From Halocynthiibacter sp. (lineage in GTDB: Bacteria > Pseudomonadota > Alphaproteobacteria > Rhodobacterales > Rhodobacteraceae): DNA of 64,000 bases. The stretch spans positions 3,955 to 67,954 of the forward strand of contig NZ_JBMYXF010000011.1 of the NCBI RefSeq assembly GCF_049608145.1, written 5' to 3'. Numbering within the stretch: the first letter of the stretch is position 1; each line of letters opens with the position of its first letter. A model generated the notes under the pieces. The model had not been told where the DNA came from, did not search any database, and saw only the letters and a list, made by a program, of their open reading frames with translations. Of this stretch, positions 11,795 to 30,433 are shown piece after piece. A program made the translations under genes and the position numbers.

Positions 11795-11881
11795 GCGGTC
11801 GTGGCGGAATTGGTAGACGCGCAGCGTTGAGGTCGCTGTGGGGTAACACCCGTGGAGGTTCGAGTCCTCTCGACCGCACCA
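11795..11881 (+). tRNA. tRNA-Leu(GAG)
   Basis: Acceptor GCGGTCG/CGACCGC, anticodon arm CAGCG-TTGAGGT-CGCTG, long variable arm, GTTCGAGTC, CCA end. Confidence 0.97.
11868..11881 (+). repeat. attL core TCTCGACCGCACCA
   Basis: Identical to 57935-57948. Confidence 0.9.
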
Positions 11882-11956
11882 GAGTATCACTAAGAAACAC
11901 ACACTAAGCTATATTTTACTGTGTGTTTGCTAGGTTTTTCACCTTGGAACATATGC

Positions 11957-11971
11957 GAACACACATAGAAC
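11957..11971 (+). promoter_or_regulatory. GAAC-N7-GAAC box upstream of integrase (LexA box or Xis-binding repeats)
   Basis: GAAC-acacata-GAAC matches the alphaproteobacterial SOS box. Confidence 0.45.
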
Positions 11972-12041
11972 AATACGTGAAGTTGTGTTTCAATTACGAC
12001 TGAATTACGATTTACGATGACATCGTAATCAGGATTCTAGC

Positions 12042-13010
12042 GTGGCCACATTCAAAAAGCTTACATCGGGGAAGTGGCAAGCACAAATTGCGCGGGCTGG
12101 GGTTCGCCGTGCGAAGAGTTTCCCGACAAAATCAGCCGCCAAAGATTGGGCTGCTAGGCAAGAATATCAGATTTCAGAGGGAACTGACAGGCAGGTCGCG
12201 TCCGGTAGGCTTTGGGATTTGTTTGATCGATATGCACGGGAGGTGTCACCAAAGCGTAAAGGCGCAAGATGGGAAATCGTTCGTTTGGAGCGATTGAAGG
12301 GTGAGGATATTGCTAAAAATTCGTTGGCAGAATTGTCACCTCTGATCTTTTCTAAGTGGCGAGACATGCGGCTGGGTGAGGTTTCGCCGGGATCTGTGAT
12401 CCGGGAAATGAACTTGATGTCTGCGGTGCTAACTGTGGCTCGTAAGGAGTGGGGGTTGATTTCTGTCAATCCGCTTTCTGATGTGCGCAAGCCAGCCAAG
12501 CCGCGCCCGCGAGATCGCCTTTTGAAGCCCGGCGAATTGGATAAGTTGTTGGAGCAAGCTGGTTTTGATCTATCAAGGCAGATAGGTCGCGCCGTTCATG
12601 CGTTTCGTTTTGCAATAGAAACCGGAATGAGGGCTGGGGAAATATTGAGCCTGACCTCTGAATTGGTCGATCTTGAGAAGCGTGTGGCAACTTTGACCGA
12701 TACTAAAAACGGCACTGCGCGAAAGGTGCCTTTGTCGAATGCGGCTGTTGAGCTTTTGAAGTTACTCCCGGACGCTCCGACTTACTTTGATTTGTCGTCA
12801 GCGAACCTTGATGCGCTGTTTCGACGGGCGCGTGATAACGCCAAGATCGAAGGCCTTCGGTTTCATGATAGCCGCCATGAGGCGGTGACACGGTTATCTA
12901 GAAAACTCGATGTGTTAAGCCTTGCACGCATGATCGGCCACAAGGATATCAAGATGCTGCAGGTCTATTATAATGAGAGCGCAGAAGATATTGCGAAGCG
13001 CTTAGATTAA
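12042..13010 (+). CDS. int: Tyrosine recombinase / phage integrase
   Basis: ETGMRAGEI, TKNG, FHDSRHE, IGHKDIKMLQVYY catalytic set. Confidence 0.95.
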   Translation: MATFKKLTSGKWQAQIARAGVRRAKSFPTKSAAKDWAARQEYQISEGTDRQVASGRLWDLFDRYAREVSPKRKGARWEIVRLERLKGEDIAKNSLAELSPLIFSKWRDMRLGEVSPGSVIREMNLMSAVLTVARKEWGLISVNPLSDVRKPAKPRPRDRLLKPGELDKLLEQAGFDLSRQIGRAVHAFRFAIETGMRAGEILSLTSELVDLEKRVATLTDTKNGTARKVPLSNAAVELLKLLPDAPTYFDLSSANLDALFRRARDNAKIEGLRFHDSRHEAVTRLSRKLDVLSLARMIGHKDIKMLQVYYNESAEDIAKRLD

Positions 13011-13256
13011 GGCGCTTCGCGGAATCAGGATCTTGGATCCGGCACGTTGGCTGTCAATTTTCCCTTTGCTAACCCATTGCCGCACAGTGGCTTCTGTCAC
13101 GCGTTTAACCTTCGCAGCTTCTGCGACAGTCAAGAGATCGCTGCTGTGTTCGCCGGTTAATGTGTCGACTTTCTCAGATAGCTCTAAAATTTTTGCCAAA
13201 AGCGGAGCGTTGGCCGCCATGACGGCTTCTTTCATTTCGTCTTGAAATGCACTCAT
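13002..13256 (-). CDS. Excisionase-like HTH protein
   Basis: LLTVAEAAKVKRVTEATVRQWVSKGKI; convergent on int. Confidence 0.8.
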   Translation of the reverse strand: MSAFQDEMKEAVMAANAPLLAKILELSEKVDTLTGEHSSDLLTVAEAAKVKRVTEATVRQWVSKGKIDSQRAGSKILIPRSALI

Positions 13257-13495
13257 CTTAATAGCTCCATTTCGTCATTGCCTTGGTGCTGTTTTGGTTC
13301 GAGCCTTTTCTGATCGTCCCATGGTGTTGCGGGCATTGTAACCGCTGTTCCGCGTTGGTGCCGTGACACAGCTTGCATTGATGCAAGTGTCGCGCCGGGT
13401 TTGCGTGGCTCTCTTGGCGGTCTGAGCGTGTGTTGCTTGGGCGTTCCTGATATCCGGTTCATAGGGCCGTTGAAAAGAATTGGTTTGTCAGTCAT
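13253..13495 (-). CDS. Phage hypothetical protein, possibly truncated
   Basis: Overlap-coupled ORF beginning MTDKPILFNGPM. Confidence 0.45.
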   Translation of the reverse strand: MTDKPILFNGPMNRISGTPKQHTLRPPREPRKPGATLASMQAVSRHQRGTAVTMPATPWDDQKRLEPKQHQGNDEMELLR

Positions 13496-13697
13496 TGGGG
13501 GTGCCCTTGTCTATGATTTCAAGGCTGAAACGAAAAGGTTCTGTTACCTTGGTCAATATGGTGCGGGTTGTTTTGATTAGGACGCGGTGGCCGTCGCACT
13601 TGTTGCAGGGATTTTCGGCTGTCACGCCATCGAAATGACTTCGCGTCCTGTTAGCCCCGCTGCCCTTGCAGAGATCGCAAATGATATAGTCGTGCAT
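13488..13697 (-). CDS. Small zinc-finger protein
   Basis: CDLCKGSG...CNKCDG (DnaJ-like CxxCxGxG); RBS present. Confidence 0.65.
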   Translation of the reverse strand: MHDYIICDLCKGSGANRTRSHFDGVTAENPCNKCDGHRVLIKTTRTILTKVTEPFRFSLEIIDKGTPND

Positions 13698-13745
13698 GTT
13701 GCTTCCTCTGTTAAGCTTGTGGATGAGCGCGGGGCGATGGATTGC

Positions 13746-14282
13746 CTATGTGCTGGCCGGTTTTGAAATTTGTTGGCGCAGATCCTCTAGGTCAATGAAG
13801 TCATCTGCGCTGCGGCGTAACTGGTCTGAACAAAGGCTTCCGTTCTTAATGGTCGAGACCATGGTCACACGCGTGCCGCGCTCTTGCAGGGCCGTGATCA
13901 GAGGGGCAAAGTCAGCGTTGCCCGTTAGAATAACCACATGATCAAGGTGCTCAGCATGCTTAAGCGCATAGCAAGTCATCAAAACACTGGCATTTCCACG
14001 ATACTGGATCTCACCATCGCTGCCTGTGAAGCTTCGTGTTTGGATGGTTTGTACGTCGAAGCCATTGTACTGCAACCAATCAAACGTTTTGCGCTGGGGG
14101 TTGAACTCGTCAGGGTCGTGATCATTGACTGTTGCAAAGTATTGGACGCGATTTAGGCGACCTTTAGATGCGAATAGGTCTCGCAGGGCTTTGTAATCAA
14201 TCCGCAAATCCATAGCGCGTACAGTTTGATAAAGGCTGTAGCCGTCAATAAACAAGCCTATGCGTTCGGTGTTGTAAAACAT
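13746..14282 (-). CDS. NYN (LabA/DUF88) domain protein with degenerate active site
   Basis: MFYNTERIGLFIDG, DWLQYNGF, LDHVVILTGNADFAPLI..LQERGTRV, LRRSADDFIDL; RBS AAGGA. Confidence 0.85.
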   Translation of the reverse strand: MFYNTERIGLFIDGYSLYQTVRAMDLRIDYKALRDLFASKGRLNRVQYFATVNDHDPDEFNPQRKTFDWLQYNGFDVQTIQTRSFTGSDGEIQYRGNASVLMTCYALKHAEHLDHVVILTGNADFAPLITALQERGTRVTMVSTIKNGSLCSDQLRRSADDFIDLEDLRQQISKPAST

Positions 14283-14399
14283 ATCAATTCCTTGATTTAA
14301 AAGGGCAGGAGGCATGAACAGAAAGCTCTCTGCCAGTGGTCTGGAGGCCGGGAAAGTTTCCTCCTGGATGTGAGGGTTGGAATTCCGGATGGCACGGAT

Positions 14400-14453
14400 G
14401 TTTTGGTACATGTAAAATGTACTGTCAATAACTTTAGTACAAAATAAATGTAC
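14400..14453 (-). promoter_or_regulatory. Early leftward promoter PL with two repressor operators
   Basis: TTGACA on minus strand at 14423-14428; GTACA-N7-TGTAC at 14406-14422 and 14437-14453. Confidence 0.8.
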
Positions 14454-14611
14454 TTTTCGGATTTTCAGTTGATGAAGATCATAGGTGTTGCAGGAAATTA
14501 AAGTGCATTTACGGCGTGCTTTTTTGAAGCTTATAGGTTGGCCGTGAGTGCTTCATTTGATTGATCAAGGATGCTCACGCTACACAAAAATAGACATTAG
14601 GTGTTACAGGA

Positions 14612-15334
14612 ATGGCAAAATTAGTAGACTGTAAAATTTGCAGTAAAGAGGTTTCATCAAAGGCGAAAAACTGCCCTCATTGTGGGCAGAAATTACGATC
14701 AGGTGCCTTTGTTACAATCCTTAAATGGATAGGTATCATTTTGGTTGCTCTAACCGTATTGGGGCTCATTTTGCCCGATCCTGAGGAAGAAACTCAAGCC
14801 TCGCGGGCAATTGATACTCAAGATGTAATTGATGTGGAGCAGCTAGAGCCCGTTGGGGTGGAAGACATTAGGCCTCAATCTCAGATCGATATACTATTGG
14901 CTGTGGATGCTGCAAGATCTGCAGCTAGGCTGGCGGCAAATGATATGCAGAAGGGTGCGGCTTTGGCAGAAAGATCAGCCGCTTTTTGCAATGCCCTTCC
15001 TGGAGGTAAGCGGATTAGTGACTGGACGGGTGAGATTTATAGCATCTCGGCTAATGGTGATGGAAAGGGAGTCTTGGTTGTAACTGTCGGGGATGACGTT
15101 TGGGCTTCGACATGGAATAATGCGCTTTCCGACATTGGAACAAACTCCCTTATTGAGCCAGGGACCGATCTGTTTGCGTCTGTTAGCGCTATGTCTCCCG
15201 GGGATGCTGTGCGATTTTCAGGTGAGTTCTTTACTGACGCTGAGACATGTATGAGTATGCACAACCTCTTTTTTGACGGAAAAATTACCGATCCTGAGTT
15301 TGTATTTAGATTCTCATCAGTGGAAGCTCTCTAG
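14612..15334 (+). CDS. Zinc-ribbon membrane protein with periplasmic domain (moron)
   Basis: CKIC...CPHCG, one TM helix, C-terminal beta-rich domain; own terminator. Confidence 0.75.
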   Translation: MAKLVDCKICSKEVSSKAKNCPHCGQKLRSGAFVTILKWIGIILVALTVLGLILPDPEEETQASRAIDTQDVIDVEQLEPVGVEDIRPQSQIDILLAVDAARSAARLAANDMQKGAALAERSAAFCNALPGGKRISDWTGEIYSISANGDGKGVLVVTVGDDVWASTWNNALSDIGTNSLIEPGTDLFASVSAMSPGDAVRFSGEFFTDAETCMSMHNLFFDGKITDPEFVFRFSSVEAL

Positions 15335-15362
15335 TAAATACTTTAAATGATGCCTTTGTGTG

Positions 15363-15400
15363 GGTGGCGTACCGGTGAGTGGTACGCCGCCTCTTTTTTC
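15363..15400 (+). terminator. Rho-independent terminator
   Basis: GGTGGCGTACC-ggtgagt-GGTACGCCGCC followed by TCTTTTTTC. Confidence 0.8.
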
Positions 15401-15417
15401 TTTCTGCGCGCCTTGTT

Positions 15418-15432
15418 GTTCCCTGAATGTTC
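15418..15432 (+). promoter_or_regulatory. Putative LexA (SOS) box
   Basis: GTTC-cctgaat-GTTC, the alphaproteobacterial GTTC-N7-GTTC consensus. Confidence 0.55.
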
Positions 15433-15580
15433 CCATATGGATATCTTGCAAATCGAGAAAGCGGCTCGGCAATAGTCTTGAGCGCCTCGTCACCTATTCC
15501 GCAAGGCGGTATTAACTAGGGAATATTGGGGGCGGTAATGTACGCGATTGCAGTTTATTTCGTAAAATACGGCATTAATA

Positions 15581-15913
15581 TCAATTGGTTGTTTGATCCA
15601 GTTCATTGTGCACGTCTTGCAATTTTTCGAAGAGACGATCCTGGACATCCGAAGGCAGTTGAGAGAACTGACCGTAGATAAGAAAATTAAAATCGATCCT
15701 GTGTTCACGAAAAAAGTACATCATTAATGATCGTGATGGGAGGGACCTTGCCTTCTCTACGTTGTTGATGGCCGCTTTTTTGACACCTGCGTTGGCACCT
15801 ACATCTTCTTGGCTATTTCCTGTGTATAGGCGTGCCGCCTTTGCGCGAATTGAGGATGCTTTGGCATCTCCATTACCGGTTAAGGCGAGGCGTTCTTTTT
15901 CTGCATAATCCAT
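15581..15913 (-). CDS. CI-like XRE HTH repressor without peptidase domain
   Basis: RAKAARLYTGNSQEDVGANAGVKKAAINNVEKARSLPS; divergent from cro-like gene. Confidence 0.8.
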   Translation of the reverse strand: MDYAEKERLALTGNGDAKASSIRAKAARLYTGNSQEDVGANAGVKKAAINNVEKARSLPSRSLMMYFFREHRIDFNFLIYGQFSQLPSDVQDRLFEKLQDVHNELDQTTN

Positions 15914-15931
15914 ATCTAAAGACACCATATA

Positions 15932-15995
15932 GTACATAAAAAGTGAACATATCTATTTTGTACCGGTTGACAGTACATAATATATGTACCAACTT
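15932..15995 (+). promoter_or_regulatory. Early rightward promoter PR with operators
   Basis: TTGACA 15967-15972 followed by GTACA-N7-TGTAC 15973-15989; near match GTACA-N7-TGAAC 15932-15948. Confidence 0.8.
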
Positions 15996-16002
15996 GCGCA
16001 TC

Positions 16003-16254
16003 ATGACTGATGTTGGAAATATATGTAATAGAATTGGCCGCATAGCGTTGGCCGAGGGGCTTGGAGTTTCCAGGGCTTCTGTAACCAACGCCATTGCTGC
16101 AGATTGCTTCCCTGCGTCTTGGCGCGATGTCGTTGAGGAGCTCTGTGAGCCGCATGGCGTAAAAACGGACTGCCCAGAATTTAAGCGTTTGTTTGCAATG
16201 AAGCCTTCTAAACTTCACAACGGCATAGCACCTGCTTGCGTAGGTACGGCTTGA
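16003..16254 (+). CDS. Cro-like protein
   Basis: IGRIALAEGLGVSRASVTNA..FPASW; position after PR. Confidence 0.75.
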   Translation: MTDVGNICNRIGRIALAEGLGVSRASVTNAIAADCFPASWRDVVEELCEPHGVKTDCPEFKRLFAMKPSKLHNGIAPACVGTA

Positions 16255-16332
16255 TGTCTGATATCGTTCGTTCTGTTTCATGTTTTCACTATGCTGCTTC
16301 ACAGTGTTCCTGCATAGGAAACGGGGTTTCTG

Positions 16333-16791
16333 ATGCCTGACCTCCGCAAAATCTCACGCGCAAATATGAAATCCATCGTTGATTGGTTCGGCTGTTTTGA
16401 TGCGGTTGCGGAAACCATCAATGCCCGCTGGGGTGGTGGCGCAAGTAAAGGCACGATCAGCAAAAAGGCATCCGGCGTGCTGGATTGGACCGTGGCTGAT
16501 GTGATTGCGCTGGAGGATGCTTCTGGGCGCTTTCCTGTGACGCGTTTGATGCAGCGGCGGTTGGAAGGTCGCCTTGTGATGGCTGAGGGTTGTCTCGTGG
16601 CGCAGTCGGGGATCATCGCGAAGGAAAGCGGCGAGGCCATTTCGGCCATTCTTTCCGCAGAGCAATCAAGTTGCGCCAATGAAAAGGCGCAAGCAATCAC
16701 TGAAATTGACGAAGCTATGTTGGCTTTACAGCAAGCCCGAAACCGCTTGGAGGGGCCGGTAAATCTTGCGGCCCCCGGGAGCGATCAATGA
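16333..16791 (+). CDS. CII-like phage regulatory protein
   Basis: HTH-like SKGTISKK, IAKESGEAISA, EIDEA; position after cro. Confidence 0.6.
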   Translation: MPDLRKISRANMKSIVDWFGCFDAVAETINARWGGGASKGTISKKASGVLDWTVADVIALEDASGRFPVTRLMQRRLEGRLVMAEGCLVAQSGIIAKESGEAISAILSAEQSSCANEKAQAITEIDEAMLALQQARNRLEGPVNLAAPGSDQ

Positions 16792-16887
16792 TCAAGTCCG
16801 GTGATTATCCCATTCGTTGTGACGATGAAGAAGGCATCTTCAATAATGTTGAAGTCTTGCCGTTGGTAGATCTGATGGAGGGTTCCA

Positions 16888-17205
16888 ATGACTGATCCCC
16901 GCGCCGCATTTTTTTCCTTGGCTTCGACCTGTGCTTTGAAAGCTAAGGTCAGCAAGCTTTCGGTTCGGGATCGTCTGAAGCTTGCTGAAATGTCGATTGT
17001 TTCGATGCGCGATGAGGTCGAGTGCATGGAGGCGCTTTCTGATTTTATCGATCACGTGACCGATAATCCGGTTTCTGCGGCAGAGCGGTTCCAATCTGAT
17101 TTGGAGCATTTGTTTCCGAATGATGATCCGCGCCGACCAGAAAGGGTTCTGGACGAAATTGAGCAAGAGCGCCACGACTGGCAAGACCGGGCGGATCTGC
17201 AATGA
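16888..17205 (+). CDS. Phage hypothetical protein
   Basis: RBS GGAGGG; ends WQDRADLQ; ATGA-coupled to next gene. Confidence 0.65.
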   Translation: MTDPRAAFFSLASTCALKAKVSKLSVRDRLKLAEMSIVSMRDEVECMEALSDFIDHVTDNPVSAAERFQSDLEHLFPNDDPRRPERVLDEIEQERHDWQDRADLQ

Positions 17206-17393
17206 GCGGGGTTCGCCGCAACGGCGATGACGTTACCGTCACGTTGACAGCTGACCAGGCATTCACTTTGCGCGTGGCATTGAAGCCGGTGCGTGTTGGG
17301 GAAACCACAAGCACAGCGACACAAAAATTCCGAGACCGCCTTGATAAAGCCTTGGCACGTGCTCTTGGTGACAACTGGAAACGGGGGCGCTGA
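17202..17393 (+). CDS. Phage hypothetical protein
   Basis: Coupled to both neighbours by overlapping start/stop. Confidence 0.6.
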   Translation: MSGVRRNGDDVTVTLTADQAFTLRVALKPVRVGETTSTATQKFRDRLDKALARALGDNWKRGR

Positions 17394-18511
17394 TGGATTA
17401 TCAAGATGATCCGCGCCTGCTTGAGGTCAAGGCAATCCCAATGGTTGAGATGATCGACCGCTTGGGCATTGTTGGACTTAAATCTATGGGGCAAGAGCGC
17501 ATCGGGCCTTGTCCTTTGTGTGGTGGTCGTGACCGGTTCGCAATCAACATTCAATCAAGTGCTTTCTTGTGCCGGAAATGCGGGATTGCGGGCGGCGATC
17601 AAGTCGGCCTGGTGATGGCTGTTCTCGGTCTGGATTTCAAAGGGGCGCTGACTGCTATGTGCGGTAATGCGCCGGCTGAAATCGATCCGGCTGAAATGGA
17701 ACGTCGACGTGCGAAAGCTGCGGAAGCGGATCGCAAGCAGAAACAGCAGCAGGAAGATTATCGCCGCCGTTCTATTGAGGTTGCGCTTGGCACGTGGAAT
17801 TCAGCGGAAAACGGGCATGATGGCCTTGTCCCTGCCTATCTGGCTGCACGCGGCATCGATGTTGATGATTTGCCGATCGGTATGCCGGATGCGCTGCGCT
17901 TCATTGATGATCATCCATACGTCAAAAAGATCAACGGCAAGAATGAGGTCGTGCATCGCGGGCCTTGCATGATTGCGGGCATCTTAAACCCGCGTGACGA
18001 ATTAACCGCAGTTCATCAAACGTGGATCGATCCGCAAGCGCTGCATGGCAAGGCATCGATCACATGGCATGGTGAAGATATGCCCGCAAAGATGGTGCGC
18101 GGTTCTAAGAAGTCTGGCGCGATCCGCCTGTCTGAGCCGAAGGGCTTTGATACGCTGGTGATGGGCGAGGGGATTGAAACCACGCTGACCGCGATGCTGG
18201 CTGTTCCGTTTCCGGGGGCTGCTTATTGGGCGGGCGTGGACCTGGGCAATATGTCCGGAAAAATGCAGAAGATCAAAGGCCAGCGTTATTCCGGCCTGCC
18301 GGATATGGACGACCTTGATGCCTTTGTGCCGCCGCCCTGGGTGAAGCGCCTTTACTTCATCATGGACGGTGACAGCGAACCCAATATGACACATGCAAAA
18401 CTGATGTCTGGCTTGCTTCGAGCGATGACTGTTGTTCCCGGCCTGCGCGGTGGGATCGTCAAGGCCGGGCCGGGGGTTGATTTGAATGATATGCTGGTGG
18501 GGGCTGAATGA
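17393..18511 (+). CDS. P4 alpha-type zinc-finger/Toprim primase
   Basis: GPCPLCGGRDRF...CRKC, YLAARGI, MGEGIETTL, MDGD, GVDLND. Confidence 0.85.
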   Translation: MDYQDDPRLLEVKAIPMVEMIDRLGIVGLKSMGQERIGPCPLCGGRDRFAINIQSSAFLCRKCGIAGGDQVGLVMAVLGLDFKGALTAMCGNAPAEIDPAEMERRRAKAAEADRKQKQQQEDYRRRSIEVALGTWNSAENGHDGLVPAYLAARGIDVDDLPIGMPDALRFIDDHPYVKKINGKNEVVHRGPCMIAGILNPRDELTAVHQTWIDPQALHGKASITWHGEDMPAKMVRGSKKSGAIRLSEPKGFDTLVMGEGIETTLTAMLAVPFPGAAYWAGVDLGNMSGKMQKIKGQRYSGLPDMDDLDAFVPPPWVKRLYFIMDGDSEPNMTHAKLMSGLLRAMTVVPGLRGGIVKAGPGVDLNDMLVGAE

Positions 18512-18512
18512 C

Positions 18513-18818
18513 TTACATCCCCACAGCGGCGCGCAACATTTCATTTGCACGTGATTGCCAGCCTTTGCCGCTGTCTTTTAGTGCTTTGACTAAATCGGCA
18601 TCCAAGCGGATTGACACAGCCTGTTTTGGGTTGTCCAAAGCAGGGCGGCCCCGGCGCTTTATCTCAGCGCCAATCTTCGCGGCTAACTCGGGGCAAGCCT
18701 CCGAAAGCGGACGGGACAGGGACAGTTCTTCGTCTGTCAGTTCCGGGCTATCGGCGTTATCCCAATCTGCTTTTGTGTATCCGTGTTTTGCGGCATGTGC
18801 CGGGTCAAACTCTGGCAT
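18513..18818 (-). CDS. brnA: BrnA antitoxin
   Basis: DSPELTDEE, RRGRP..K.AVSIRLDADLV..LK.SGKGWQSRANEMLR. Confidence 0.92.
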   Translation of the reverse strand: MPEFDPAHAAKHGYTKADWDNADSPELTDEELSLSRPLSEACPELAAKIGAEIKRRGRPALDNPKQAVSIRLDADLVKALKDSGKGWQSRANEMLRAAVGM

Positions 18819-19065
18819 ATTCTTCCCTTTCCTTTTTGCTGGCGGGGCGCATGGAGATCACCGAGATGGCTTCTGTGCCCAGTTCAGCGAAGATGGCCAC
18901 GATGGTGCCATCGTCCAGCTTACCAATGGCAAACTTGCGATTGTCGCGGCTGTCACCAATATGTGCGGCCTCAAAGAATTCAAGCGTCAGATCAGCGAAG
19001 TCAAAGCCGTGCTTGGCTTTGTTCATCTGCCGTTTCGGCTCGTCCCATGTGATCAATGTTTCCAT
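18805..19065 (-). CDS. brnT: BrnT ribonuclease toxin
   Basis: WDEPKRQMNKAKHGFDF, ISMRPASKKER..Y. Confidence 0.92.
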   Translation of the reverse strand: METLITWDEPKRQMNKAKHGFDFADLTLEFFEAAHIGDSRDNRKFAIGKLDDGTIVAIFAELGTEAISVISMRPASKKEREEYARV

Positions 19066-19072
19066 ATATACT

Positions 19073-19120
19073 GTATATACATTAAATGCAGTACCTGCAA
19101 TAGCGTATATACATTAAATG
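19073..19120. promoter_or_regulatory. Probable brnTA operator: two 16-bp direct repeats
   Basis: GTATATACATTAAATG at 19073-19088 and 19105-19120, each containing palindrome GTATATAC. Confidence 0.7.
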
Positions 19121-19262
19121 GTGTCGTTCCGATATTGACTAATGCACTTGAAGCAGGCAATGTGACCGTGCAGCAGGGGAAATGCTCTGTTGTCGGGATT
19201 GGCGTCCTGTCTATACGTAGGTGCTCTGCTAGCCGCGCCGAAACTCGACGCGGCTTAAATTA

Positions 19263-19340
19263 TGGTCAGATGCGCAGGAGAACCCTCGGGTTCGCCGTTC
19301 CTACGGGCGGTAACGCCAATCCTGTGTCATCTGGCCACCA
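19263..19340 (+). ncRNA. c4-type (P1 C4 / P4 CI-like) antisense RNA
   Basis: Terminal stem TGGTCAGATG/CATCTGGCCA plus 3' CCA; internal TCCTACG and ACGCCAAT complementary to upstream and downstream target pairs. Confidence 0.85.
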
Positions 19341-19386
19341 GAGATTGGCGTCTCGGCGGTCGGTTAAATCCAACCGTAGGAGGCCT

Positions 19387-19599
19387 ATGATGCCTGCCAA
19401 TGATACCTATTTTGACCTATACACCACCCTTGACCTTAAGCTGAACGATATCGCCGGAACGGTTTCCGCGCTTGAAATCGTCACAGAAGAATTCGACGGT
19501 ATCCCGACGCGGGATCTCGAAACGCGCCGTTTGCGCGGCACGATCAGCGCCCTGACCAAAAGCCTCACCCTTCAAGTGAAGGAGGCGCAGAATGTCTGA
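19387..19599 (+). CDS. Small 70-aa c4-controlled protein (icd/kil position)
   Basis: AGGAGG RBS overlapping target a2; stop overlaps helicase start. Confidence 0.7.
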   Translation: MMPANDTYFDLYTTLDLKLNDIAGTVSALEIVTEEFDGIPTRDLETRRLRGTISALTKSLTLQVKEAQNV

Positions 19600-21469
19600 A
19601 GATGGCCTGAACAATGTGCGCAAGGCGTTTGAAAACCCAGAAATGGTTGAGCCTGTGGAAGGCTTGCTGCCACGACCAGAGGATGAACCGGAAGCAGGGC
19701 AGGGCGCAGGCGCACCACCCCACACCCCGGACTATGATGATATCGATCCATATGATTTTGTCCCTGAAATGGATGGGGCAAAACTGCCCTTGAATGATGT
19801 TGGCAATGGCCAGCGGTTTGCTTTGTATTGCGGCGAGAATGCCAAATATGTGCCGCGTGTCGGTTGGCATATCTGGGATGGTCGCCGCTGGAAGTTGGAC
19901 CCAGACGGCATCGAAGTGCGCCGCCTCGGTCAGACCATTCATGAACGCATTAACGCTGAAATCCCGTTTGTGCCGCTGAATGGTGGCGAGATGCGCAAGC
20001 AGCAGAAGCTTGAGAATATTCGAGAGCAGCTGAACGGTGAAATTGATGCTGAGCGCAAAAAAGAGCTGGAAGAAGAAAAGGCGTCTTTGACGTCTGATCT
20101 GTGGGGCAAGGGTTCCACCAGACAACGGCACCTGACATTCGCAAACTCATCCGGCAATAACGGCAAAATCAAATGCATGCTGGAAGAAACAGTCACCAGT
20201 CTGCACTGCCTTGTTGAGGATCTCGACGCGGACCCAATGACGGTGAACACGGAAAGCGGCTTGCTGCGGTTCTCGGTCGAAGTGGATGAACATGACGCGG
20301 CCTTTACGCCAGCTGGTCAGCCAGCGCCAAAGCGTGCGGGTGTTGTTGAGTTGCCGCATGAGCGCGAAGTGTCGATCGCTGGCAAGAACCGCCCGCAATA
20401 CATTACAAAAATGATGCCTGTGGAATATGACCCATCGGCCACCTGTCCGAAGTTTGACGCGTTTCTTGAACGCATCATGCCGGATAAGGAAGACCGCGAA
20501 TTTCTTGCGCGCTGGTTTGGGCTGTCCATGTCAGCACTGCCGATTCAAAAGTTCCTATATTGCTATGGCATGGGGGCAAACGGTAAGTCATTGCTGACCA
20601 ACCTGATGCGCCGCATGCTGGGCGATTACGCCACGATGGTGAAGATCGAAAGCCTGACGGGCAAGAACCGCAAATCTGGTTCTGATGCCACGCCTGATCT
20701 GTTTCGTTTGATTGGTGCCCGTGCGGCGCTGACCAATGAGCCGGAAGAGGGTGAGCGCCTGCAGGAACAGAAGGTCAAAGAGATGACTGGTGGCGATGAA
20801 ATGCTGGTGCGCACGCTGCATTCTGATTTCGTTGAATTCACGCCGTATTTCAAGCTGACCTTCACCGGCAACCATAAGCTGGATATCCGGGGCACGGATG
20901 ATGGTATCTGGCGGCGTCCGCTGCTGATGCCCTTTGATGTTCAGATCCCGGCGCATGAACGTGACGAGATGCTTGGCGACAAGCTGTTTGACGAAGAACG
21001 CAACGGAATCCTGAACTGGATGATTGCGGGTCTGAAGGACTATCTGGAAGGTGGGTTGCAAGAACCTGAGAAGGTTGTCCTGGCGACCGAAGAATATCGC
21101 AAAGACAGCGACCCGGTTGGTGATTTCCTTGCCACGGGTTGTGTGATGGATGGTCAAGGTGACTTCCTTCGCGCGCGTGACTTCGTGGATGCCTGTTATC
21201 TGTATTTGCTTGAAAACACGTCACATGCTTGGCAACCGGGAAACCTCCAGCGCAAATTGAAAGAGCGGGCGGGCAAATATATGCACCCGGCCAGCAGAAA
21301 GTCCTATACGCGACACAAGCGCAATGGGAACTGGGGATACACAGGCGTTCGATTGACTGCAGATATGCAGGCGCGCCTTGATGCGGCTCCGCGAGACCAA
21401 AAGGGTCTTCCGATGTTACGAAATGATGACGACGACGGGTCGTCGTCCAGCGGACACCACCCGTTGTGA
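19592..21469 (+). CDS. P4-family D5-type primase/helicase (SF3)
   Basis: D5_N motif NDVGNGQRF..WDGRRW, Walker A GMGANGKS, TGNHK, DDGIWRR. Confidence 0.92.
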   Translation: MSEDGLNNVRKAFENPEMVEPVEGLLPRPEDEPEAGQGAGAPPHTPDYDDIDPYDFVPEMDGAKLPLNDVGNGQRFALYCGENAKYVPRVGWHIWDGRRWKLDPDGIEVRRLGQTIHERINAEIPFVPLNGGEMRKQQKLENIREQLNGEIDAERKKELEEEKASLTSDLWGKGSTRQRHLTFANSSGNNGKIKCMLEETVTSLHCLVEDLDADPMTVNTESGLLRFSVEVDEHDAAFTPAGQPAPKRAGVVELPHEREVSIAGKNRPQYITKMMPVEYDPSATCPKFDAFLERIMPDKEDREFLARWFGLSMSALPIQKFLYCYGMGANGKSLLTNLMRRMLGDYATMVKIESLTGKNRKSGSDATPDLFRLIGARAALTNEPEEGERLQEQKVKEMTGGDEMLVRTLHSDFVEFTPYFKLTFTGNHKLDIRGTDDGIWRRPLLMPFDVQIPAHERDEMLGDKLFDEERNGILNWMIAGLKDYLEGGLQEPEKVVLATEEYRKDSDPVGDFLATGCVMDGQGDFLRARDFVDACYLYLLENTSHAWQPGNLQRKLKERAGKYMHPASRKSYTRHKRNGNWGYTGVRLTADMQARLDAAPRDQKGLPMLRNDDDDGSSSSGHHPL

Positions 21470-21539
21470 TGTGCCGGGCGGCATATTCAAGTCAAAGCGC
21501 CGCCCGCACCCCGCACCCCTACATTCTAATTCGATTGAT

Positions 21540-21865
21540 TTCGGGGCAGGTCTCAAAGTTCTGCCCCGTTTTGGGGCGTATCTTCAAGAATACTCCCTTA
21601 GAAAATTACACGTATTTACAATCGTTTGCGGTTGTTTTGGGGCGCTTGGGGCGCATAGGGCAGAACTTGGCGGGGTTCGCGCGTGCGTGTATCTTCCGGG
21701 GTCTGGGGGAAATAAGCCTCACGTGTAAGTCACATATTTGTGCCCTATGCGCCCCGCGCGCCCCGCCTTGCGTTTTTCTTGCGCGTTTTCAGATGGTTAC
21801 AACTTCGAATATGCCAGCATAGTTCTGCCCCGTTTTTCCGAGTTCTGCCCCAAGCGCCCCAACCT
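21540..21865. repeat. Iteron-like repeat cluster, candidate replication origin
   Basis: AGTTCTGCCCC at ~21557, 21821, 21841, inverted GGGCAGAACT 21658-21667; multiple GGGGCG/CGCCCC. Confidence 0.6.
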
Positions 21866-21935
21866 TCACAAACAACTTCTACATCTTGTTTAAAAAAACA
21901 ACGAAACAACAATATCTTGAATTGAGAGAGTAGCG

Positions 21936-22709
21936 ATGAAACAAAAAGCGGTAAGCCAAGCCTGTTGCACTGATAAAAAGGGGGTAAAGTTCCCAGCTCA
22001 TCTCTGTTGCCATGTTTGCCGCAAACGGGCGGCTAAGGTTGAACGGTTGCGCATAATCGCGGTTGGCACTGCGCCAGACACATGTAGTCAGGAATTGCCG
22101 GTCGCGCCGGGCCGTGGCGAGGTTGTTCCCTTTCGTGAAGTTCAGGTCTTGTCGAAGGGGGAGGGTGACTTTGAATTGTCGACCATGCCGTATCGCAGTG
22201 GCTGCCCTGGGCGCGCGCGTGATATCTTTGACGTCATGACCGAACAGGCCACACGGCGAAAGGGCGGCGTTGTCCCATTCACTGCAGCGCAAGTGGAAAT
22301 CGCCCGCGACTACCGGGATCTCTGCGAACGGATTGAGGGCTCTGGCATCAAGTGTTCCAGCACCTTTAGTGATCATATTGGTGGGCAAGGTAAGGTTGAT
22401 TTCATGGACGCCTATATGCGCGACACAGAACGCCTTGCTTTGTTTCGCGCGGCCATTGGTGAGGGTCTGGCAATGGAAACGAAGCGCCGGGTTGCGGCCA
22501 ATGTGGCGGGTATCAAGGTTGGCGACATTCAATTACGCGAGATTGGGCGCAAGATGATCACGTCCACTGTGCTTGTCGATATGGTGTGTATCGCAGAAAA
22601 GCCCCTCAGCGGCGTGTTAGAAGCCCATGGCTGGCGTGCGACCGGAAAAAACAGAATGACGCTTCGTGCGGCTCTCTGTGCCGCTCTAGGGCGCATGCAA
22701 GGGGTTTGA
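21936..22709 (+). CDS. Phage protein, candidate late-gene regulator
   Basis: C-terminal HTH-like LVDMVCIAEKPLSGVLEAHGW..LRAALCAAL; directly precedes late promoter; start uncertain. Confidence 0.6.
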   Translation: MKQKAVSQACCTDKKGVKFPAHLCCHVCRKRAAKVERLRIIAVGTAPDTCSQELPVAPGRGEVVPFREVQVLSKGEGDFELSTMPYRSGCPGRARDIFDVMTEQATRRKGGVVPFTAAQVEIARDYRDLCERIEGSGIKCSSTFSDHIGGQGKVDFMDAYMRDTERLALFRAAIGEGLAMETKRRVAANVAGIKVGDIQLREIGRKMITSTVLVDMVCIAEKPLSGVLEAHGWRATGKNRMTLRAALCAALGRMQGV

Positions 22710-22718
22710 GAAAGGGTG

Positions 22719-22802
22719 TTGACAGTTAGGACCACCGGATTTAACTGTATACCTATCATCACGAAATGCGCCCACGGGAAACCGGCGGGCGTTTTTGCTT
22801 TT
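22719..22802 (+). promoter_or_regulatory. Late promoter followed by terminator (pR'/tR'-like)
   Basis: TTGACA 22719; inverted repeat ACAGTTA-N13-TAACTGT; hairpin CGCCC..GGGCG followed by TTTTTGCTTTT. Confidence 0.6.
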
Positions 22803-22939
22803 GTAGATGTCAATTTGTCTGAAAAGAACTGCTTTGAGTGGATGGATCTAACCAATCCAACTGAGGAGGTGCGCCATGTATCGCGGGGTAATGCTCGCAG
22901 GGCAGGATCTGCCTGATAGCTTATGAAGCGAGGTGTTCA

Positions 22940-23509
22940 ATGTTCAAAGTTGGTGAGGTTGACGTCAAAGGCTTGAAGCAATTCGACAATTTGTTGGGGG
23001 CTTTGGGGGAGAAACCTGCCCGTGAAGTAATCAATAGGGCGTTAAATCGCACTGGGGATATGGCGCGCACGAAGGTTGTTCGGGAACTTTCCAAGCAAAC
23101 AGGCTTGCCGCAAAAGACCATCCGTAAAGCTGTGAAGGTCGATAGGTCGTCATGGCAAGATTTGGAGTATCGCCTGACGGCATCGGGCGGCAACGTGTCA
23201 CTGAAATACTTCAAAGCGCGCGAAACCCTGCGGGGCGTGACTGCCAATGTGCGTGGTAAGCGTGAATTGTTTGAAGGATCATTCATCAAGGGTGGTAGCT
23301 TTGATCGTGGCCGTGTCGTTGCGCAGGGATTGAATGGTCATGTCTTCCAACGCATCGGTGGTCGCACTGAATTAGAAAAGCTGAAGTCAGGTGTGTTCAT
23401 CCCAATCGAGATGGTTGAAGGCGCAACGGCCAAAGCTTTTGATGATGTGGTGTCGAACGTTCTGCCACGCCGCCTTGACCATGAAATCAACCGCCTGATC
23501 AAAGCATAA
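22940..23509 (+). CDS. Lambda gpZ-like phage protein
   Basis: RALNRTG..ART...RELS, HVFQRIG, RLDHEINRL. Confidence 0.7.
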   Translation: MFKVGEVDVKGLKQFDNLLGALGEKPAREVINRALNRTGDMARTKVVRELSKQTGLPQKTIRKAVKVDRSSWQDLEYRLTASGGNVSLKYFKARETLRGVTANVRGKRELFEGSFIKGGSFDRGRVVAQGLNGHVFQRIGGRTELEKLKSGVFIPIEMVEGATAKAFDDVVSNVLPRRLDHEINRLIKA

Positions 23510-23519
23510 ATGCTAAGTA

Positions 23520-23678
23520 AGCGGCCCCCAAAAACTTAGGGACCGTAGATCTATTCTGCCGCACGCGGGGCGTGAGCTGCCCGAGGGTTCGCCAGTCAGA
23601 CGGGTTTTGTGAAGCGTCAACAAACTGGGGGCGTGTCAACAACATCCTGTCAACAAACCTGTAAGGGTGGTGTCAACA
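23520..23678 (+). other. Candidate cos/packaging region
   Basis: GC-rich non-coding segment then four GTCAACA repeats (23616, 23635, 23649, 23672) before terS. Confidence 0.55.
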
Positions 23679-24364
23679 TGCAGCCTCAACTTCTGACAAA
23701 GGCAAAGTTTGCAGAGCATATGGGGGTTTCTCGATTTGCAGTCAGTAAATGGTTGGAGCGGGGAACGATTACTTCTGCGGCTTTGGTTGGGGAAGGACGC
23801 AAGGCTAAGATCAATGTTACTTTGGCCGTTGAGCAAGTGCGACAAAACCGAGATATCGGGCAGTCACTTGGGAATGGGATTGAAACGCGGACGTCGACCG
23901 AGGCGGTTGCGGATGAGAAGGCGGTGCCGACTGAGGTTCAACCTGATCTTTTGCCCGTTAAACCCGAGGCCGTGGCTGTTGAACCGCCCGCAGCCCCGAC
24001 ACAAAAGCAACCAAAGATTGATACCGTTGAAGACCAGCTGAAGCGCGCGCGGTTGGAAGAACAACACCGCAAGAACCGCATTGGTGCTTCTGAAGAAGCA
24101 CTCCAGCAGGGCTTGCTGATGTCGTCGGATGATGCGCGCGAACAAATGTCCCGTGTGGCGGGCATGATGTTGCAGATTTTTGAAGGTGCATTGACTGATT
24201 TTGCCGCGATCACCGCGTCACAGTTCAACGTGCCGCAACGCGATGTTTTGCATACGCTAAAGAATGAGTTTCGGAAGGTTCGCAAGGCCGCGACCCAAAA
24301 GGAACAGGCGCGGATCACGGAATTAGAGAAGGCCACGATGACCTCTGTAGAATTGGATGGGTGA
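23678..24364 (+). CDS. Terminase small subunit
   Basis: N-terminal wHTH TKAKFAEHMGVSRFAVSKW; coiled coil; precedes terL. Confidence 0.8.
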   Translation: MQPQLLTKAKFAEHMGVSRFAVSKWLERGTITSAALVGEGRKAKINVTLAVEQVRQNRDIGQSLGNGIETRTSTEAVADEKAVPTEVQPDLLPVKPEAVAVEPPAAPTQKQPKIDTVEDQLKRARLEEQHRKNRIGASEEALQQGLLMSSDDAREQMSRVAGMMLQIFEGALTDFAAITASQFNVPQRDVLHTLKNEFRKVRKAATQKEQARITELEKATMTSVELDG

Positions 24365-26316
24365 TGCTAGATATCGCAGTCACAAACGCGGAATGGATGC
24401 TGCATGACGTCTTGGCTGATGTGTTGGATCCACCGCCGCCAGTCGACTACCTGAAATGGGCAGAAGACAACATTGTGTTCTCGGAGCGTGAAAGCGAGTT
24501 TTCCGGCCCTTATAACCGTGAACGCTTTCGCTATTTCGACGAAATACTGAGGGCTCTGTCACCAGAGGATGCATGTCGCCTGATTTCACTGGCAAAATCC
24601 GCGCAGCTTGGTGGTACGGTGCTTGCGAACATCTTCACAGGTGGTTCCATGGAAATGGATCCCGGTGATATTCTCTATGTCCACCCGACTGAAGAGAACG
24701 CGCGGCGTTGGTCGAAGATGAAACTGTCGCCGATGTTGAAAGGCACGACGTCTCTTCGCAATATCTTTCCGATGAAAGCCCGCGATGGGCAGGATTCTGT
24801 AACCTATAAAGAGCGCCGCGATGGTCGCGGTGCCATTCTGATTTCTGGTGCGAACTCGCCCGCGTCACTTTCGCAGGTATCCATGAGCCGACAAGTTCAG
24901 GATGACCTTGCAAAATGGGATATGAACTCGGCTGGGGATCCTGAGAACCAAGCTGACAGCCGCAGCCAGGGCCGTGAGTTTGCCAAGATTTTCAAGATCT
25001 CGACGCCAATGGTTATTCCAGGCTGTCGCATCACTACAAACTTTGAGGCCGGGAGCCAAGAATACCCCTATGTTCCATGCCCGCATTGTGGGCACATGCA
25101 TGTGCTTGAATGGGAGAACATGTTCCAAAACTTGGATGAAGATCATCCAGAGAAAGCGCATTTTAATTGCCCTGAATGTGGGTGCGTAATTGAAGACCAC
25201 CACCGCGCCGAAATGATCCCATATGTTGAGTGGCGGGCGTCCAATCCAAAAATGAAGCGGTTCCACCGTTCGTTTTATCTGTGGTCTGCTTATTCGCCGT
25301 TGCAATCATTTGAGCGTATCGCGCGTTCTTGGCTGGCTGCCAAGGGCGATCCGCTGAAAGAACAGACATTTTGGAATGACGTTGTCGGTAAGGCTTATCG
25401 GATTCTTGGTGAATCTCCACCATGGGAGGATCTTCGGGACCGGGCATCTGAGGCCGATTATGATCACGGCACAATTCCAGCGGGCTATCCGTTGTTGACT
25501 TGTGGAGTGGATTGCCAAGGGGATCGTGTTGAATGGCAGGTGGTTGCCTGGGGGCCAAACAAGCGCCGGGCCGTGGTGGAATACGGCGTCTACAACGGGC
25601 ATATCTCCGATGAGATCTGCCAGTCAAACCTGAATGCATTGCTGAAACAAGGCTTTCGGAATGCTTATGGTCGCAAGATCAAGATTGATCTTCTGGCGAT
25701 AGATGGCAATGCCTACACCGAGGACGTTTGGGATTGGGCGCGCAAGCATCCAGCAGGTCGGGTGATCATGGTGCGCGGTGTGCATCCTGAAAGCGCGCCT
25801 TTGCTGGCGCAGGTGAAAAAAGAGCGCAACCGGCGCGGCAAGATTGTTCGCTATTCAAAGCGTTTTTACAACTTTGCATCTGCGGTCATGAAGATGGCTC
25901 TGTATCGCAATCTGAAGAAAGAGGATCCGCTAGAGCGTGGATTTATTGGCTTGCCGAGAGGTTTGGACGATGAGTTTTATCGCCAGATTACGGCGGAATC
26001 CCGGCAGGCTGTAAAAGCCAAGTCGGGGTTCACACGTTATCTTTGGGTGAAAGATCCTAGCCAGGCAAACGAAGGCTTGGACACGCATTTGCAGGCTGAA
26101 GCCGCAGCCACACGATTGGGGGTTCGCAGCCTCCCAGATGCGGAGTGGGAACGCTTAATGGCGGAACGTGAATGCCCGCCAGAAGATGTTCAGGCAGATT
26201 TTGACGATTTACTTTTGGCCACGCAGATCAATGTGGCGGCTGACGTACAAGATGAACCGCAGAATGATCCGGATGCTGAGAAGAAACGCATTCAGAACAA
26301 ATGGAGGAAGAGATAG
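24361..26316 (+). CDS. Terminase large subunit, gpA family
   Basis: KSAQLGGT, GANSPASL, ISTP, CPHC..CPEC, GVDCQ, NEGLD. Confidence 0.95.
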   Translation: MMLDIAVTNAEWMLHDVLADVLDPPPPVDYLKWAEDNIVFSERESEFSGPYNRERFRYFDEILRALSPEDACRLISLAKSAQLGGTVLANIFTGGSMEMDPGDILYVHPTEENARRWSKMKLSPMLKGTTSLRNIFPMKARDGQDSVTYKERRDGRGAILISGANSPASLSQVSMSRQVQDDLAKWDMNSAGDPENQADSRSQGREFAKIFKISTPMVIPGCRITTNFEAGSQEYPYVPCPHCGHMHVLEWENMFQNLDEDHPEKAHFNCPECGCVIEDHHRAEMIPYVEWRASNPKMKRFHRSFYLWSAYSPLQSFERIARSWLAAKGDPLKEQTFWNDVVGKAYRILGESPPWEDLRDRASEADYDHGTIPAGYPLLTCGVDCQGDRVEWQVVAWGPNKRRAVVEYGVYNGHISDEICQSNLNALLKQGFRNAYGRKIKIDLLAIDGNAYTEDVWDWARKHPAGRVIMVRGVHPESAPLLAQVKKERNRRGKIVRYSKRFYNFASAVMKMALYRNLKKEDPLERGFIGLPRGLDDEFYRQITAESRQAVKAKSGFTRYLWVKDPSQANEGLDTHLQAEAAATRLGVRSLPDAEWERLMAERECPPEDVQADFDDLLLATQINVAADVQDEPQNDPDAEKKRIQNKWRKR

Positions 26317-26318
26317 CT

Positions 26319-27902
26319 GTGACTGGCCTAATTCGACCTGATGGGACGCCATTGGTGGCATCCTCTGCTGCCAATCGCACGACAGCTCGCTATTTGCGGG
26401 ACACAAAAAGCGGCGCCATTGCATCTCGCGTTGCACCATTGACCAACAGCCGGGATGATATTCGCCGGGCATGGTCGCGCAGTGCGGGCCTTGCGATGGA
26501 TTTGATTCAGAACTCAGGTCGCCTGAAAGGGGCTTGTGATCAAGTCATTGCCGACACAGTTGGGGTTGGTCTTACATTGACGCCGGACCCTGATTTGACG
26601 GGCTTGGGTTATGATGATGCGGAAAAGGCTGCTTTCATCCGGTTGCTAAAACGCCGTTGGAAAGCTTATTGGCTCGACAAAAAAGAATGCGACATGCGCG
26701 GCAAACTAAATGGCCCGCAGATGGTTGATATTGCCCTGCGTTGGGACATTGCATTTGGGGAAGTCACAGGGGTTTTTGATTTCTTTGATGACGCTGATCG
26801 CAGCCATTACGGCATTACGACGGGCACAAAACTGTGCATGGTATCGCCGCAAAAACTGGTTCAGGAGACAAGCACGCATGACGGGTTGTTTCAGGGGGTC
26901 CGTCATGATGGCAAGGGCCGTCCGGTTTCTTATCGTTTTGAAACCAATTCAGATGGTGTGAAATCTAAGCGGGATTATGCAGCGTTTGATACCGATGGTC
27001 GGCCAATGGTTTTGCATGTCTTTGACCCGATGGATGCAGATGATGTGCGCGGGATCTCAAAGCTGGCACCAGCGTTTCGCAAGCATATCCAAGCGGAAAT
27101 GTTGGATGATGCAACGCTGCAAATGGCGCTGCTGCAAACGATTTTCGCCATTACGATCACCAGCGACACGCCAAGTGCGGACGCATATGAGGCGTTGGAG
27201 GTCTTAAAAGAGCAGGGCGATGATGGTGTCGCATTTGGTAAGGAATATCTGGGGTATTTGTCCGGCAGTTTGGGGGCCGCTGCTGACAGCCGGATTTCGG
27301 TTGGTGCTGATCCTCAGGTGTCTCATTTAGGACCAGGGGAAAAACTAGCCTTAGAAACCGCAAATGTGCCAGGCAAAGACTTCCTGCCATTCTCAAATAG
27401 CTTGGCGCGCGACATGGCGCGGACAATCGGTTGTTCCTACGGTGGCCTAACCATGGATTACACCGCCGCAACATATTCCAGTGTCCGGATGGAGAACTCA
27501 TCGATCTGGTCTGTTGTGATGCGTCGGCGTGAACGTACCGCGGCCCCGATTTGTCAGATGTCATATGAAAACTGGCTTGATGAAGAAATCGGCGAGGGGC
27601 GTATCCCGTTTAAAGGAGGCTATGGCGCGTTTCGTGCCAATCGTCGCCGTATCTGCTGCGCGTCATGGCAAGGGCCAGCCAAGCCCACGGCAGATGATTG
27701 GAAGGCTGCGCGGGCATCAAGTGAGCGTTTGGAAAACGGCACAAGTTCAATCGCGATTGAAACCGGGGATCTCGGCGTTGATAGCGATGCACTGTTTGAA
27801 GAACGTGAACGGGAGCACCTGCGTTATTTAAAGGCCGGAATGGATTCACCTTATGCGGCAAAGCCTGATCAGCAGGTTGTGCAAATGGAGGCCGTGGAAT
27901 GA
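26319..27902 (+). CDS. Portal protein, lambda family
   Basis: VRGIS.LAP, DY...TYSSVR, WQGP. Confidence 0.9.
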   Translation: MTGLIRPDGTPLVASSAANRTTARYLRDTKSGAIASRVAPLTNSRDDIRRAWSRSAGLAMDLIQNSGRLKGACDQVIADTVGVGLTLTPDPDLTGLGYDDAEKAAFIRLLKRRWKAYWLDKKECDMRGKLNGPQMVDIALRWDIAFGEVTGVFDFFDDADRSHYGITTGTKLCMVSPQKLVQETSTHDGLFQGVRHDGKGRPVSYRFETNSDGVKSKRDYAAFDTDGRPMVLHVFDPMDADDVRGISKLAPAFRKHIQAEMLDDATLQMALLQTIFAITITSDTPSADAYEALEVLKEQGDDGVAFGKEYLGYLSGSLGAAADSRISVGADPQVSHLGPGEKLALETANVPGKDFLPFSNSLARDMARTIGCSYGGLTMDYTAATYSSVRMENSSIWSVVMRRRERTAAPICQMSYENWLDEEIGEGRIPFKGGYGAFRANRRRICCASWQGPAKPTADDWKAARASSERLENGTSSIAIETGDLGVDSDALFEEREREHLRYLKAGMDSPYAAKPDQQVVQMEAVE

Positions 27903-28174
27903 CGATCACCAGTACGGTCAAAATTGGCACAGATCTGATTGATATTTCTAAGCCTTGCGATGTTGTGACGGCGTTGAAGAAAATGCAGTTGAAGCTGGCG
28001 GTTGGTGGTGTGCGCGAAACAGTGCGCATCGATGGTGAAGAAGTCACGTTCATGCGGGCAAATGATCGTCGCTTGGCTGCGTTGACTACACATTACGAAA
28101 GTGAATGCGCCCGGCAAGGTGGCGGCGCAAAGCGAACCCGTTACGCAAAACGCTTTAGAATAGGGAAGTGCTGA
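27899..28174 (+). CDS. gpW-like head-tail joining protein
   Basis: VRIDGEEVTF..AN...L; size and position. Confidence 0.6.
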   Translation: MTITSTVKIGTDLIDISKPCDVVTALKKMQLKLAVGGVRETVRIDGEEVTFMRANDRRLAALTTHYESECARQGGGAKRTRYAKRFRIGKC

Positions 28175-28931: not shown

Positions 28932-28976
28932 ACAGCTTGTTAAGCCTTCTTTCAGTTCAAATCAATCTTGGAGACA

Positions 28977-30035: not shown

Positions 30036-30037
30036 CA

Positions 30038-30421: not shown

Positions 30422-30433
30422 GGGAGAGTTCCT

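Follow-up and report, generated by a model that had tools for sequence, protein, structure and literature searches.

The prophage of a Halocynthiibacter sp. carries, in what appears to be its early-left position, a gene for a NYN-domain protein that is likely catalytically dead. This gene belongs to a clade, carried by temperate phages, of housekeeping NYN copies that have been stripped catalytically; the clade is real and under selection, and it is apparently undescribed. The window analyzed is the whole 64,000-nucleotide stretch of contig that contains the prophage. An earlier note on these letters had proposed a dead LabA/DUF88 nuclease made as an early phage product, and its claims are taken up below where the results bear on them.

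An intact NYN gene in the prophage

The open reading frame starts with an ATG at 14282 and encodes 178 aa with no internal stop. Translation thereby bears out the intact, full-length NYN protein of the earlier note, and the three motifs quoted there are all present. The protein belongs to the NYN domain family: in the comparison with the Pfam model that the note had suggested, residues 7-166 matched the whole domain (PF01936, profile positions 1-145 of 145) with 91.6 bits at a cut-off of 24.2. None of the PHROG families matched it.

The deposited form of the gene is longer (221 aa from an ATG at 14411). We rejected that start because its ATG sits inside an operator (Table 1). The homologue on contig L141 (see below) begins at the equivalent of 14282, with a similar AAGGAA ahead. 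The 5' leader of the window gene has an ordinary fold (z 0.31). On a contig of another sample, a close allele diverges from the window at 14334, 52 bases upstream of the ATG, and the gene is therefore also found behind a different upstream region.

Table 1. Coordinates of features in the window
Feature	Position	Strand	Remarks
Probable prophage extent	11868..57948	.	tRNA-Leu 3' end repeated over 14 bp, at 11868-11881 and 57935-57948
Tyrosine integrase	12042..13010	+	Pfam
Genes downstream of NYN in the same leftward unit	13002..13697	-	small CXXC protein, 80-aa ORF, excisionase-like HTH_17
NYN gene (LabA/DUF88, PF01936), putative pseudo-nuclease	13746..14282	-	178 aa; Pfam match, alignment, model
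Codon for Asn122	13917..13919	-	replaces host Asp120; S/T-x-D, MARF1 D272 position
Codon for Tyr105	13968..13970	-	replaces host Asp103, variable in hosts
Codon for Ser99	13986..13988	-	replaces host Asp97; helix 3 start, MARF1 D246 position
Codon for Ser16	14235..14237	-	replaces the DxxN Asn
Codon for Asp13	14244..14246	-	retained; MARF1 D178 position
AAGGAA, ribosome-binding-site-like	14288..14293	-	also before the L141 homologue
Putative leftward early promoter	14400..14428	-	TTGACA; 17-bp spacer is the operator; weak -10
Operator 1, GTACA-N7-TGTAC	14406..14422	.	
Operator 2	14437..14453	.	
240-aa zinc-ribbon gene between cI and the left operators	14612..15334	+	followed by a terminator-like site, 15362-15392
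cI-like HTH repressor	15581..15937	-	HTH matches weak and under the cut-off
Two matching operators between the cI-like and cro-like genes	15932..15989	.	15932-15948 and 15973-15989

Placement in the prophage early-left region

A tRNA-Leu gene lies at 11795-11881, and a 14-bp copy of its end at 57935 marks the probable right end of the prophage. Head, contractile tail and lysis genes lie between the two 14-bp repeats. The prophage also holds a BrnT/BrnA toxin-antitoxin pair (18513-19065, minus strand) that sits between the primase and helicase genes and runs opposite to them. The zinc-ribbon gene encodes a hydrophobic stretch, has low-GC surroundings and a terminator-like site of its own, and is a moron-like candidate.

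The site GTACA-N7-TGTAC, with at most one mismatch, occurs four times in the 64 kb (0.55 expected), and 0 of 100 shuffles reached four. One pair of these operators is upstream of the NYN gene, and the other separates the cI-like from the cro-like gene. Each pair has a TTGACA immediately adjoining one of its operators, and the leftward and rightward promoter regions are related as an inverted repeat (I1, 88% over 26 nt). From these operators and the TTGACA abutting them at both sites, we infer that the NYN gene is the first ORF of a repressor-controlled leftward unit reaching the excisionase gene. It lies downstream of operators shared with the cI-cro region and upstream of xis and int, as expected of a lambdoid early-left gene and as claimed earlier. 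The operator-guarded PL promoter of the same claim stands in part. Its operators exceed expectation, as given above, but a sigma-70 consensus scan of the window called neither TTGACA site as a promoter, so "PL" here denotes a reading of the layout and not a full consensus.

Fold and catalytic positions

The predicted structure of the protein (pLDDT 94.5) has the NYN variant of the PIN fold. The nearest solved structure was 2QIP (Z 21.5, rmsd 2.5, 156 residues aligned). The mouse MARF1 NYN domain matched with Z 16.3 (rmsd 2.8, 142 aligned), the next chain after these two reached Z 9.7, and Foldseek agreed. In MARF1, aspartates at the ends of strands 1, 2 and 4 and at the start of helix 3 are each needed for cleavage, and a single alanine at the helix-3-start or the S-x-D aspartate abolished it each time (PMC6217404, accessible text). 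We mapped the catalytic positions by structural position and spacing against this eukaryotic enzyme, at 16% identity and not by residue-level alignment, for which only 2QIP matched.

In the model, helix 3 begins with S99, and N122 comes after strand 4, two positions past T120, in the manner of S270-x-D272. Of the features of an active NYN, the helix-3-start aspartate is replaced by Ser99 and the S/T-x-D aspartate by Asn122. By structural position, the two lost aspartates would match positions that MARF1 needs for cleavage. The DxxN motif at the end of strand 1 keeps D13, with Ser in place of N16. Compensating acidic residues, named in the earlier note as grounds for giving up its reading, were not gained in helix 3 or in the TGNADF loop: helix 3 has no acid before E111, and the acidic residues left are D13, D54, D124 and D153. 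The protein is thus rated likely to be catalytically dead, and because those four residues remain we do not put it more strongly.

Comparison with the chromosomal NYN gene

A genome search with the window protein returned two NYN-like genes in total. One is the prophage copy. The other (G000:C1; 42-43% identity) holds the locus between ispH and folK/rpoZ, gene names that we assigned by reading the ORFs. The likeness to an alphaproteobacterial housekeeping NYN protein, drawn in the earlier note, can therefore now be tied to an actual host gene aligned at 42% identity. The family's host gene was present in 392 of the 401 Rhodobacteraceae genomes searched.

Pairwise alignment gave the host-to-window substitutions N16>S, D97>S99, E99>L101, D103>Y105 and D120>N122, with D13 and D124 retained. 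The alignment recovered all four replacements that had been read from the letters (N>S, D>S, D>Y, D>N) and added E99>L101, which had been missed. D103 proved a weak example: 13 of 145 host-locus genes have Asn there, which makes the site uninformative. The window protein contains 20 Lys and Arg residues versus 26 in the host protein.

Purifying selection on the phage copies

Among 1.84 billion cluster representatives searched, one close relative came up (contig L141, 71% identity), which has S16, S99, N105 and N122. Its gene order matches that of the window: NYN is followed by the small CXXC gene, and excisionase and integrase come next, with a dnaB-like gene ahead of them. The extra gene between NYN and excisionase (L141:872-2362) is a full-length, host-like dnaB.

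Between the window and L141, pS was 0.705 and pN 0.171; dN/dS came to about 0.09, dS being nearly saturated. Comparison with a close variant from a different sample gave 11 synonymous and 8 non-synonymous differences (binomial p 0.0013). The dN/dS was 0-0.22 in 15 other phage pairs and 0.008-0.031 in the three measurable host pairs. These ratios indicate purifying selection on the phage copies that is looser than on the host genes. The check proposed earlier, for dN/dS below 1 together with conserved loss of aspartates, thus came out in favor of the proposal, the losses being common to the window and L141. The opposing possibility, intact homologs and a drifting copy here, fails for this lineage, and sequence comparison indicates that the window gene did not lose its acids by drift. 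An open frame and purifying selection, despite lost residues at catalytic positions, is the sequence pattern of a pseudo-enzyme.

Across 17 non-redundant phage copies, D29, Y48, D66, N71, G72, Q131, G134 and S141 are invariant as in hosts, and so are L154, R155 and R156 (the LRR motif), D159 and F161; D120 is kept in three copies and G121 in two. D13 was invariant in 55/55 sequences picked as degenerate. Judged from this pattern, selection keeps the fold and residues away from the lost aspartates.

Phage, plasmid and chromosomal relatives

Single-sequence searches gave no match among viral contigs and one weak 31% match among GenBank phages. Relatives emerged only with alignments, by which the scans collected 52, 17 and 19 viral loci in overlapping sets. 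A scan of a genome collection, in which the 80 matches listed were all host genes, provided a control set that is blind to prophage copies. Classification by neighbors started from 240 genes, or 210 after duplicates and hits under 140 aa had been dropped. The host-locus class comprised 146 genes beside ispH, folK or rpoZ; with the fragment L076 left out, 144 of the 145 full-length genes keep D13, D97, D120 and D122.

None of the 21 copies beside temperate-phage markers keeps all four aspartates (host numbering), in a class that depended on the markers chosen from Rhodobacteraceae-type temperate phages. The class consists of the window copy, one genome prophage, one metagenome contig and 18 viral contigs. 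D120 was lost in 18 copies (17 Asn, 1 Ser) and D97 in three. Different branches lost different aspartates (D120N/S, D97A/S/N/E/R), the clade uses both Asn codons at position 120, and the Ser99 codon differs synonymously between the window and L141. Related temperate phages share the early-left placement; the order at most of the 21 loci is cII-cro-cI-(f3)-NYN-...-xis-int, where NYN is usually not first. Such a prophage copy was found in 1 of 400 family genomes, among the second matches opened.

Two further genes recur at the phage loci, neither of them beside the window gene. The f3 family (L082:7164-7553 and 15 other loci, 120-150 aa) lies between cI and NYN and gave no match in Pfam, NCBIfam or PADLOC. 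A GapR-like nucleoid-protein gene follows shortly after the degenerate NYN at L082:8543-8962 and in five other phages, so that in six distinct phages the NYN operon holds a second host-like gene.

Of 2702 representatives, the best 150 included 148 that could be aligned; 89 of these were missing one or more of the four aspartates, a share that is inflated by the degenerate query and by 50% clustering and was counted without genomic context. Viral copies outside the temperate class were intact in 21 of 38 cases and not in 17. An integrase search covering 48 of 56 records (eight temperate loci were left out) identified L095, L110 and L113 as proviruses outside the temperate class, with an intact four-Asp NYN in the early region. 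Their NYN genes lie among RecT/RecD-like, recombination and helicase early genes. Nine phages of about 50 kb (L101, L114-L116, L119, L122, L129, L131 and L139) also have an intact NYN, with no integrase match and with primase-helicase and uracil-DNA glycosylase genes close to it, and the jumbo-size records L102, L105 and L107 have an intact NYN too. By their sequences, these phage NYNs look active, and they seem to be a separate finding not yet described.

Of the plasmid copies opened, 3/6 were intact and 3/6 were not. Degenerate paralogues outside phages were seen as second chromosomal or plasmid copies (L072, L078, L245, L246, L247), and the aspartates lost differ among them. In genome G020, the chromosomal NYN gene at ispH-folK carries D120N, and two genus relatives keep the Asp; this one case could be an error, relaxation or escape. 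The strain is a lysogen whose chromosomal and prophage copies (L033:7738-8298, minus strand, and L032:7494-8039, plus strand) both have D120N.

Origin of the phage clade

A careful tree was built from 45 of the 100 rows of a quick tree, with L120 and near-copies left out. Its 16 temperate-phage copies form one clade (97/88) placed among the family host genes. The 21 phage copies are not independent losses, because they are largely one clade. The intact proviral copies L095, L110 and L113 form a separate clade. A constraint that keeps the family host genes monophyletic was not rejected by an AU test (p-AU 0.142). The tree favors capture from inside Rhodobacteraceae, and a host-to-phage direction is likely. 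The window lineage has a long branch (0.93), and on the tree its gene is an old, long-branched member of the clade rather than one recently copied from the chromosome of its own host.

Discussion

We tentatively prefer, at somewhat less than even confidence, the explanation that the protein is a host-derived pseudo-nuclease that competes or pairs with the host NYN protein and dampens it. This look-alike account is the simplest, because the host counterpart is near-universal and the gene is placed early. Judging by the lambda-like layout, the gene would be repressed in the lysogen and made at once on induction or infection. By analogy with MARF1, its product would not cleave and would present a dead look-alike of the host protein. 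It might pair with the host nuclease, or occupy its RNA or protein target, and host activity would be lowered. The simplest benefit to the phage would be longer-lived phage transcripts. Since nearly all family genomes searched have the NYN gene, every host would offer the target.

A parallel in principle is known from Caenorhabditis elegans, where NYN-1, a selected degenerate NYN-type paralogue, pairs with the active RDE-8 and inhibits it (10.64898/2026.09.04.749402, part of the text). Those proteins belong to the Regnase family (RNase_Zc3h12a/PRORP PIN group), are eukaryotic and are encoded in the same genome, whereas the window paralogue is viral and its pairing hypothetical. The intact copies in three proviruses, 21/38 other viral loci and 3/6 plasmids count against an inhibitor: mobile elements also profit from apparently active copies, and a model of pure inhibition would not lead one to expect this. 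Further points against it are the D120N of the G020 host gene, the descent of the phage losses from one clade, and the retention of D13, D54, D124 and D153. Poisoning of an oligomer, as the earlier note had suggested, lacks structural support in the NYN family because the human MARF1 NYN domain is a monomer in solution (PMC6294520, accessible text). A broader statement seems plausible to us, though short of probable: Rhodobacteraceae temperate phages may have made the host NYN into an early-left dominant-negative or retargeting pseudo-enzyme, with other alphaproteobacterial phages carrying the active form.

Next in line, with perhaps half the credence given to dampening of the host NYN, the protein could be a non-catalytic RNA- or protein-binding factor independent of host NYN, for example one that shields or chaperones early phage RNA or binds a partner recognized by intact and dead copies alike. 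This best explains the sharing, since intact and degenerate copies both lie in early operons, as if selection acted on a binding surface. The basic residues R45, R136, R155 and R156 are kept, and both the long window branch and the changes at the host-invariant surface motifs Y58-S59, T77-K78 and R90-K91 are consistent with it. However, the protein has no RNA-binding accessory domain and fewer Lys and Arg than its host counterpart, and MARF1 cleavage required the LOTUS domain of that enzyme (PMC6217404, accessible text).

It is unlikely that the substitutions merely tune a weak or altered nuclease acting through D13, D54, D124 and D153. D13 is always and D122 mostly kept, most relatives have only the conservative D120N, which one host chromosome (G020) tolerates, and the catalytic map leans on a eukaryotic enzyme of 16% identity. 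Yet in the window protein D97 and D120 are both gone and helix 3 has no acid before E111, and the branches lose different aspartates, each single loss of which abolished MARF1 cleavage (PMC6217404, as above).

We give slightly less credit still to a protein that pairs with the host NYN and redirects or licenses it, for host RNA shut-off or in the lysis-lysogeny choice. NYN-1 inhibits RDE-8 yet also links it to an activating scaffold (10.64898/2026.09.04.749402, part of the text), and the intact phage copies suggest that phages can want NYN activity. No partner gene is common to all loci, however: f3 (16 loci) and the GapR-like gene (six phages) are both missing beside the window gene.

It appears improbable that the protein serves as a decoy, either against defense systems that contain NYN or against a sensor guarding the host NYN. 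Early-left operons often hold counter-defense genes, and the protein matches the PADLOC models PDLC01154 (E 7e-19) and HEC-09 (E 7e-5). The host housekeeping gene scores better on the same models, which makes the match generic; these are half-profile or weak matches that share the NYN domain, and HEC-09 keeps three Asp. The genome search with the window protein found only the two NYN-like genes described, and HEC-09, the single NYN defense candidate tried in 10.1101/2024.01.29.577857, protected against no phage tested there. The suggestion that the protein counters NYN-based defense is weakened accordingly, as the protein goes with the housekeeping gene and not with defense NYNs. That the gene is a decaying passenger is largely refuted and hardly credible. 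In its favor, dN/dS runs several-fold higher (0.04-0.22) than in host genes (0.008-0.031), and 1/400 family genomes had such a prophage copy among the second matches opened. Against it, window and L141 have an open frame and share their replaced residues across near-saturated synonymous divergence.

Among known systems, the alphaproteobacterial housekeeping NYN (NYN.COG1432/LabA-DUF88, at ispH-folK-rpoZ) is like the window protein in fold, length, 42% identity, D13 and D122, the N-terminal MFY start and the C-terminal LRRxADxF motif. The window copy differs in being phage-borne behind repressor operators, in its shorter tail and in lacking N16, D97, E99, D103 and D120. The Blr5067 cluster is an example of an uncharacterized housekeeping member, and the role of a Bradyrhizobium member is called undetermined in the accessible part of PMC4287336. 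For the LabA/DUF88 cluster, the portion of PMC5499597 available assigns no function, counts 1-5 acidic residues and one dsDNA-virus member, and describes no phage pseudo-enzyme. The same portion places cyanobacterial LabA/LalA in this cluster, a paralogue pair that affects gene expression; unlike the window gene, these are chromosomal circadian regulators. MARF1 NYN (5YAA, 6FDL) and Vibrio VPA0982 (2QIP) resemble the window protein in structure and in the layout of DxxN, helix-3 Asp and S-x-D. MARF1, though, is an active RNase with four required aspartates and RNA-binding domains, whereas the window protein lacks two of the matched aspartates and any accessory domain. In the full-text literature, which leaves most subscription papers outside, we found no phage NYN pseudo-nuclease and no function for the host gene.

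LabA/DUF88 NYN proteins are among the commonest predicted bacterial RNases without an assigned substrate. By keeping a stripped copy under purifying selection, a phage lineage points to the host NYN, or to its binding target, as something that matters in infection. The copy is also a probe at hand: when expressed, it should reproduce the effect of a knockout or capture the target. If the dampening explanation is true, a pseudo-enzyme built from the host's own nuclease gene would add a phage tactic for which the literature searched held no NYN example. The phage protein would be a natural inhibitor that reveals the substrate of the host NYN, and the housekeeping NYN would be an unrecognized host factor limiting or shaping infection by phages.
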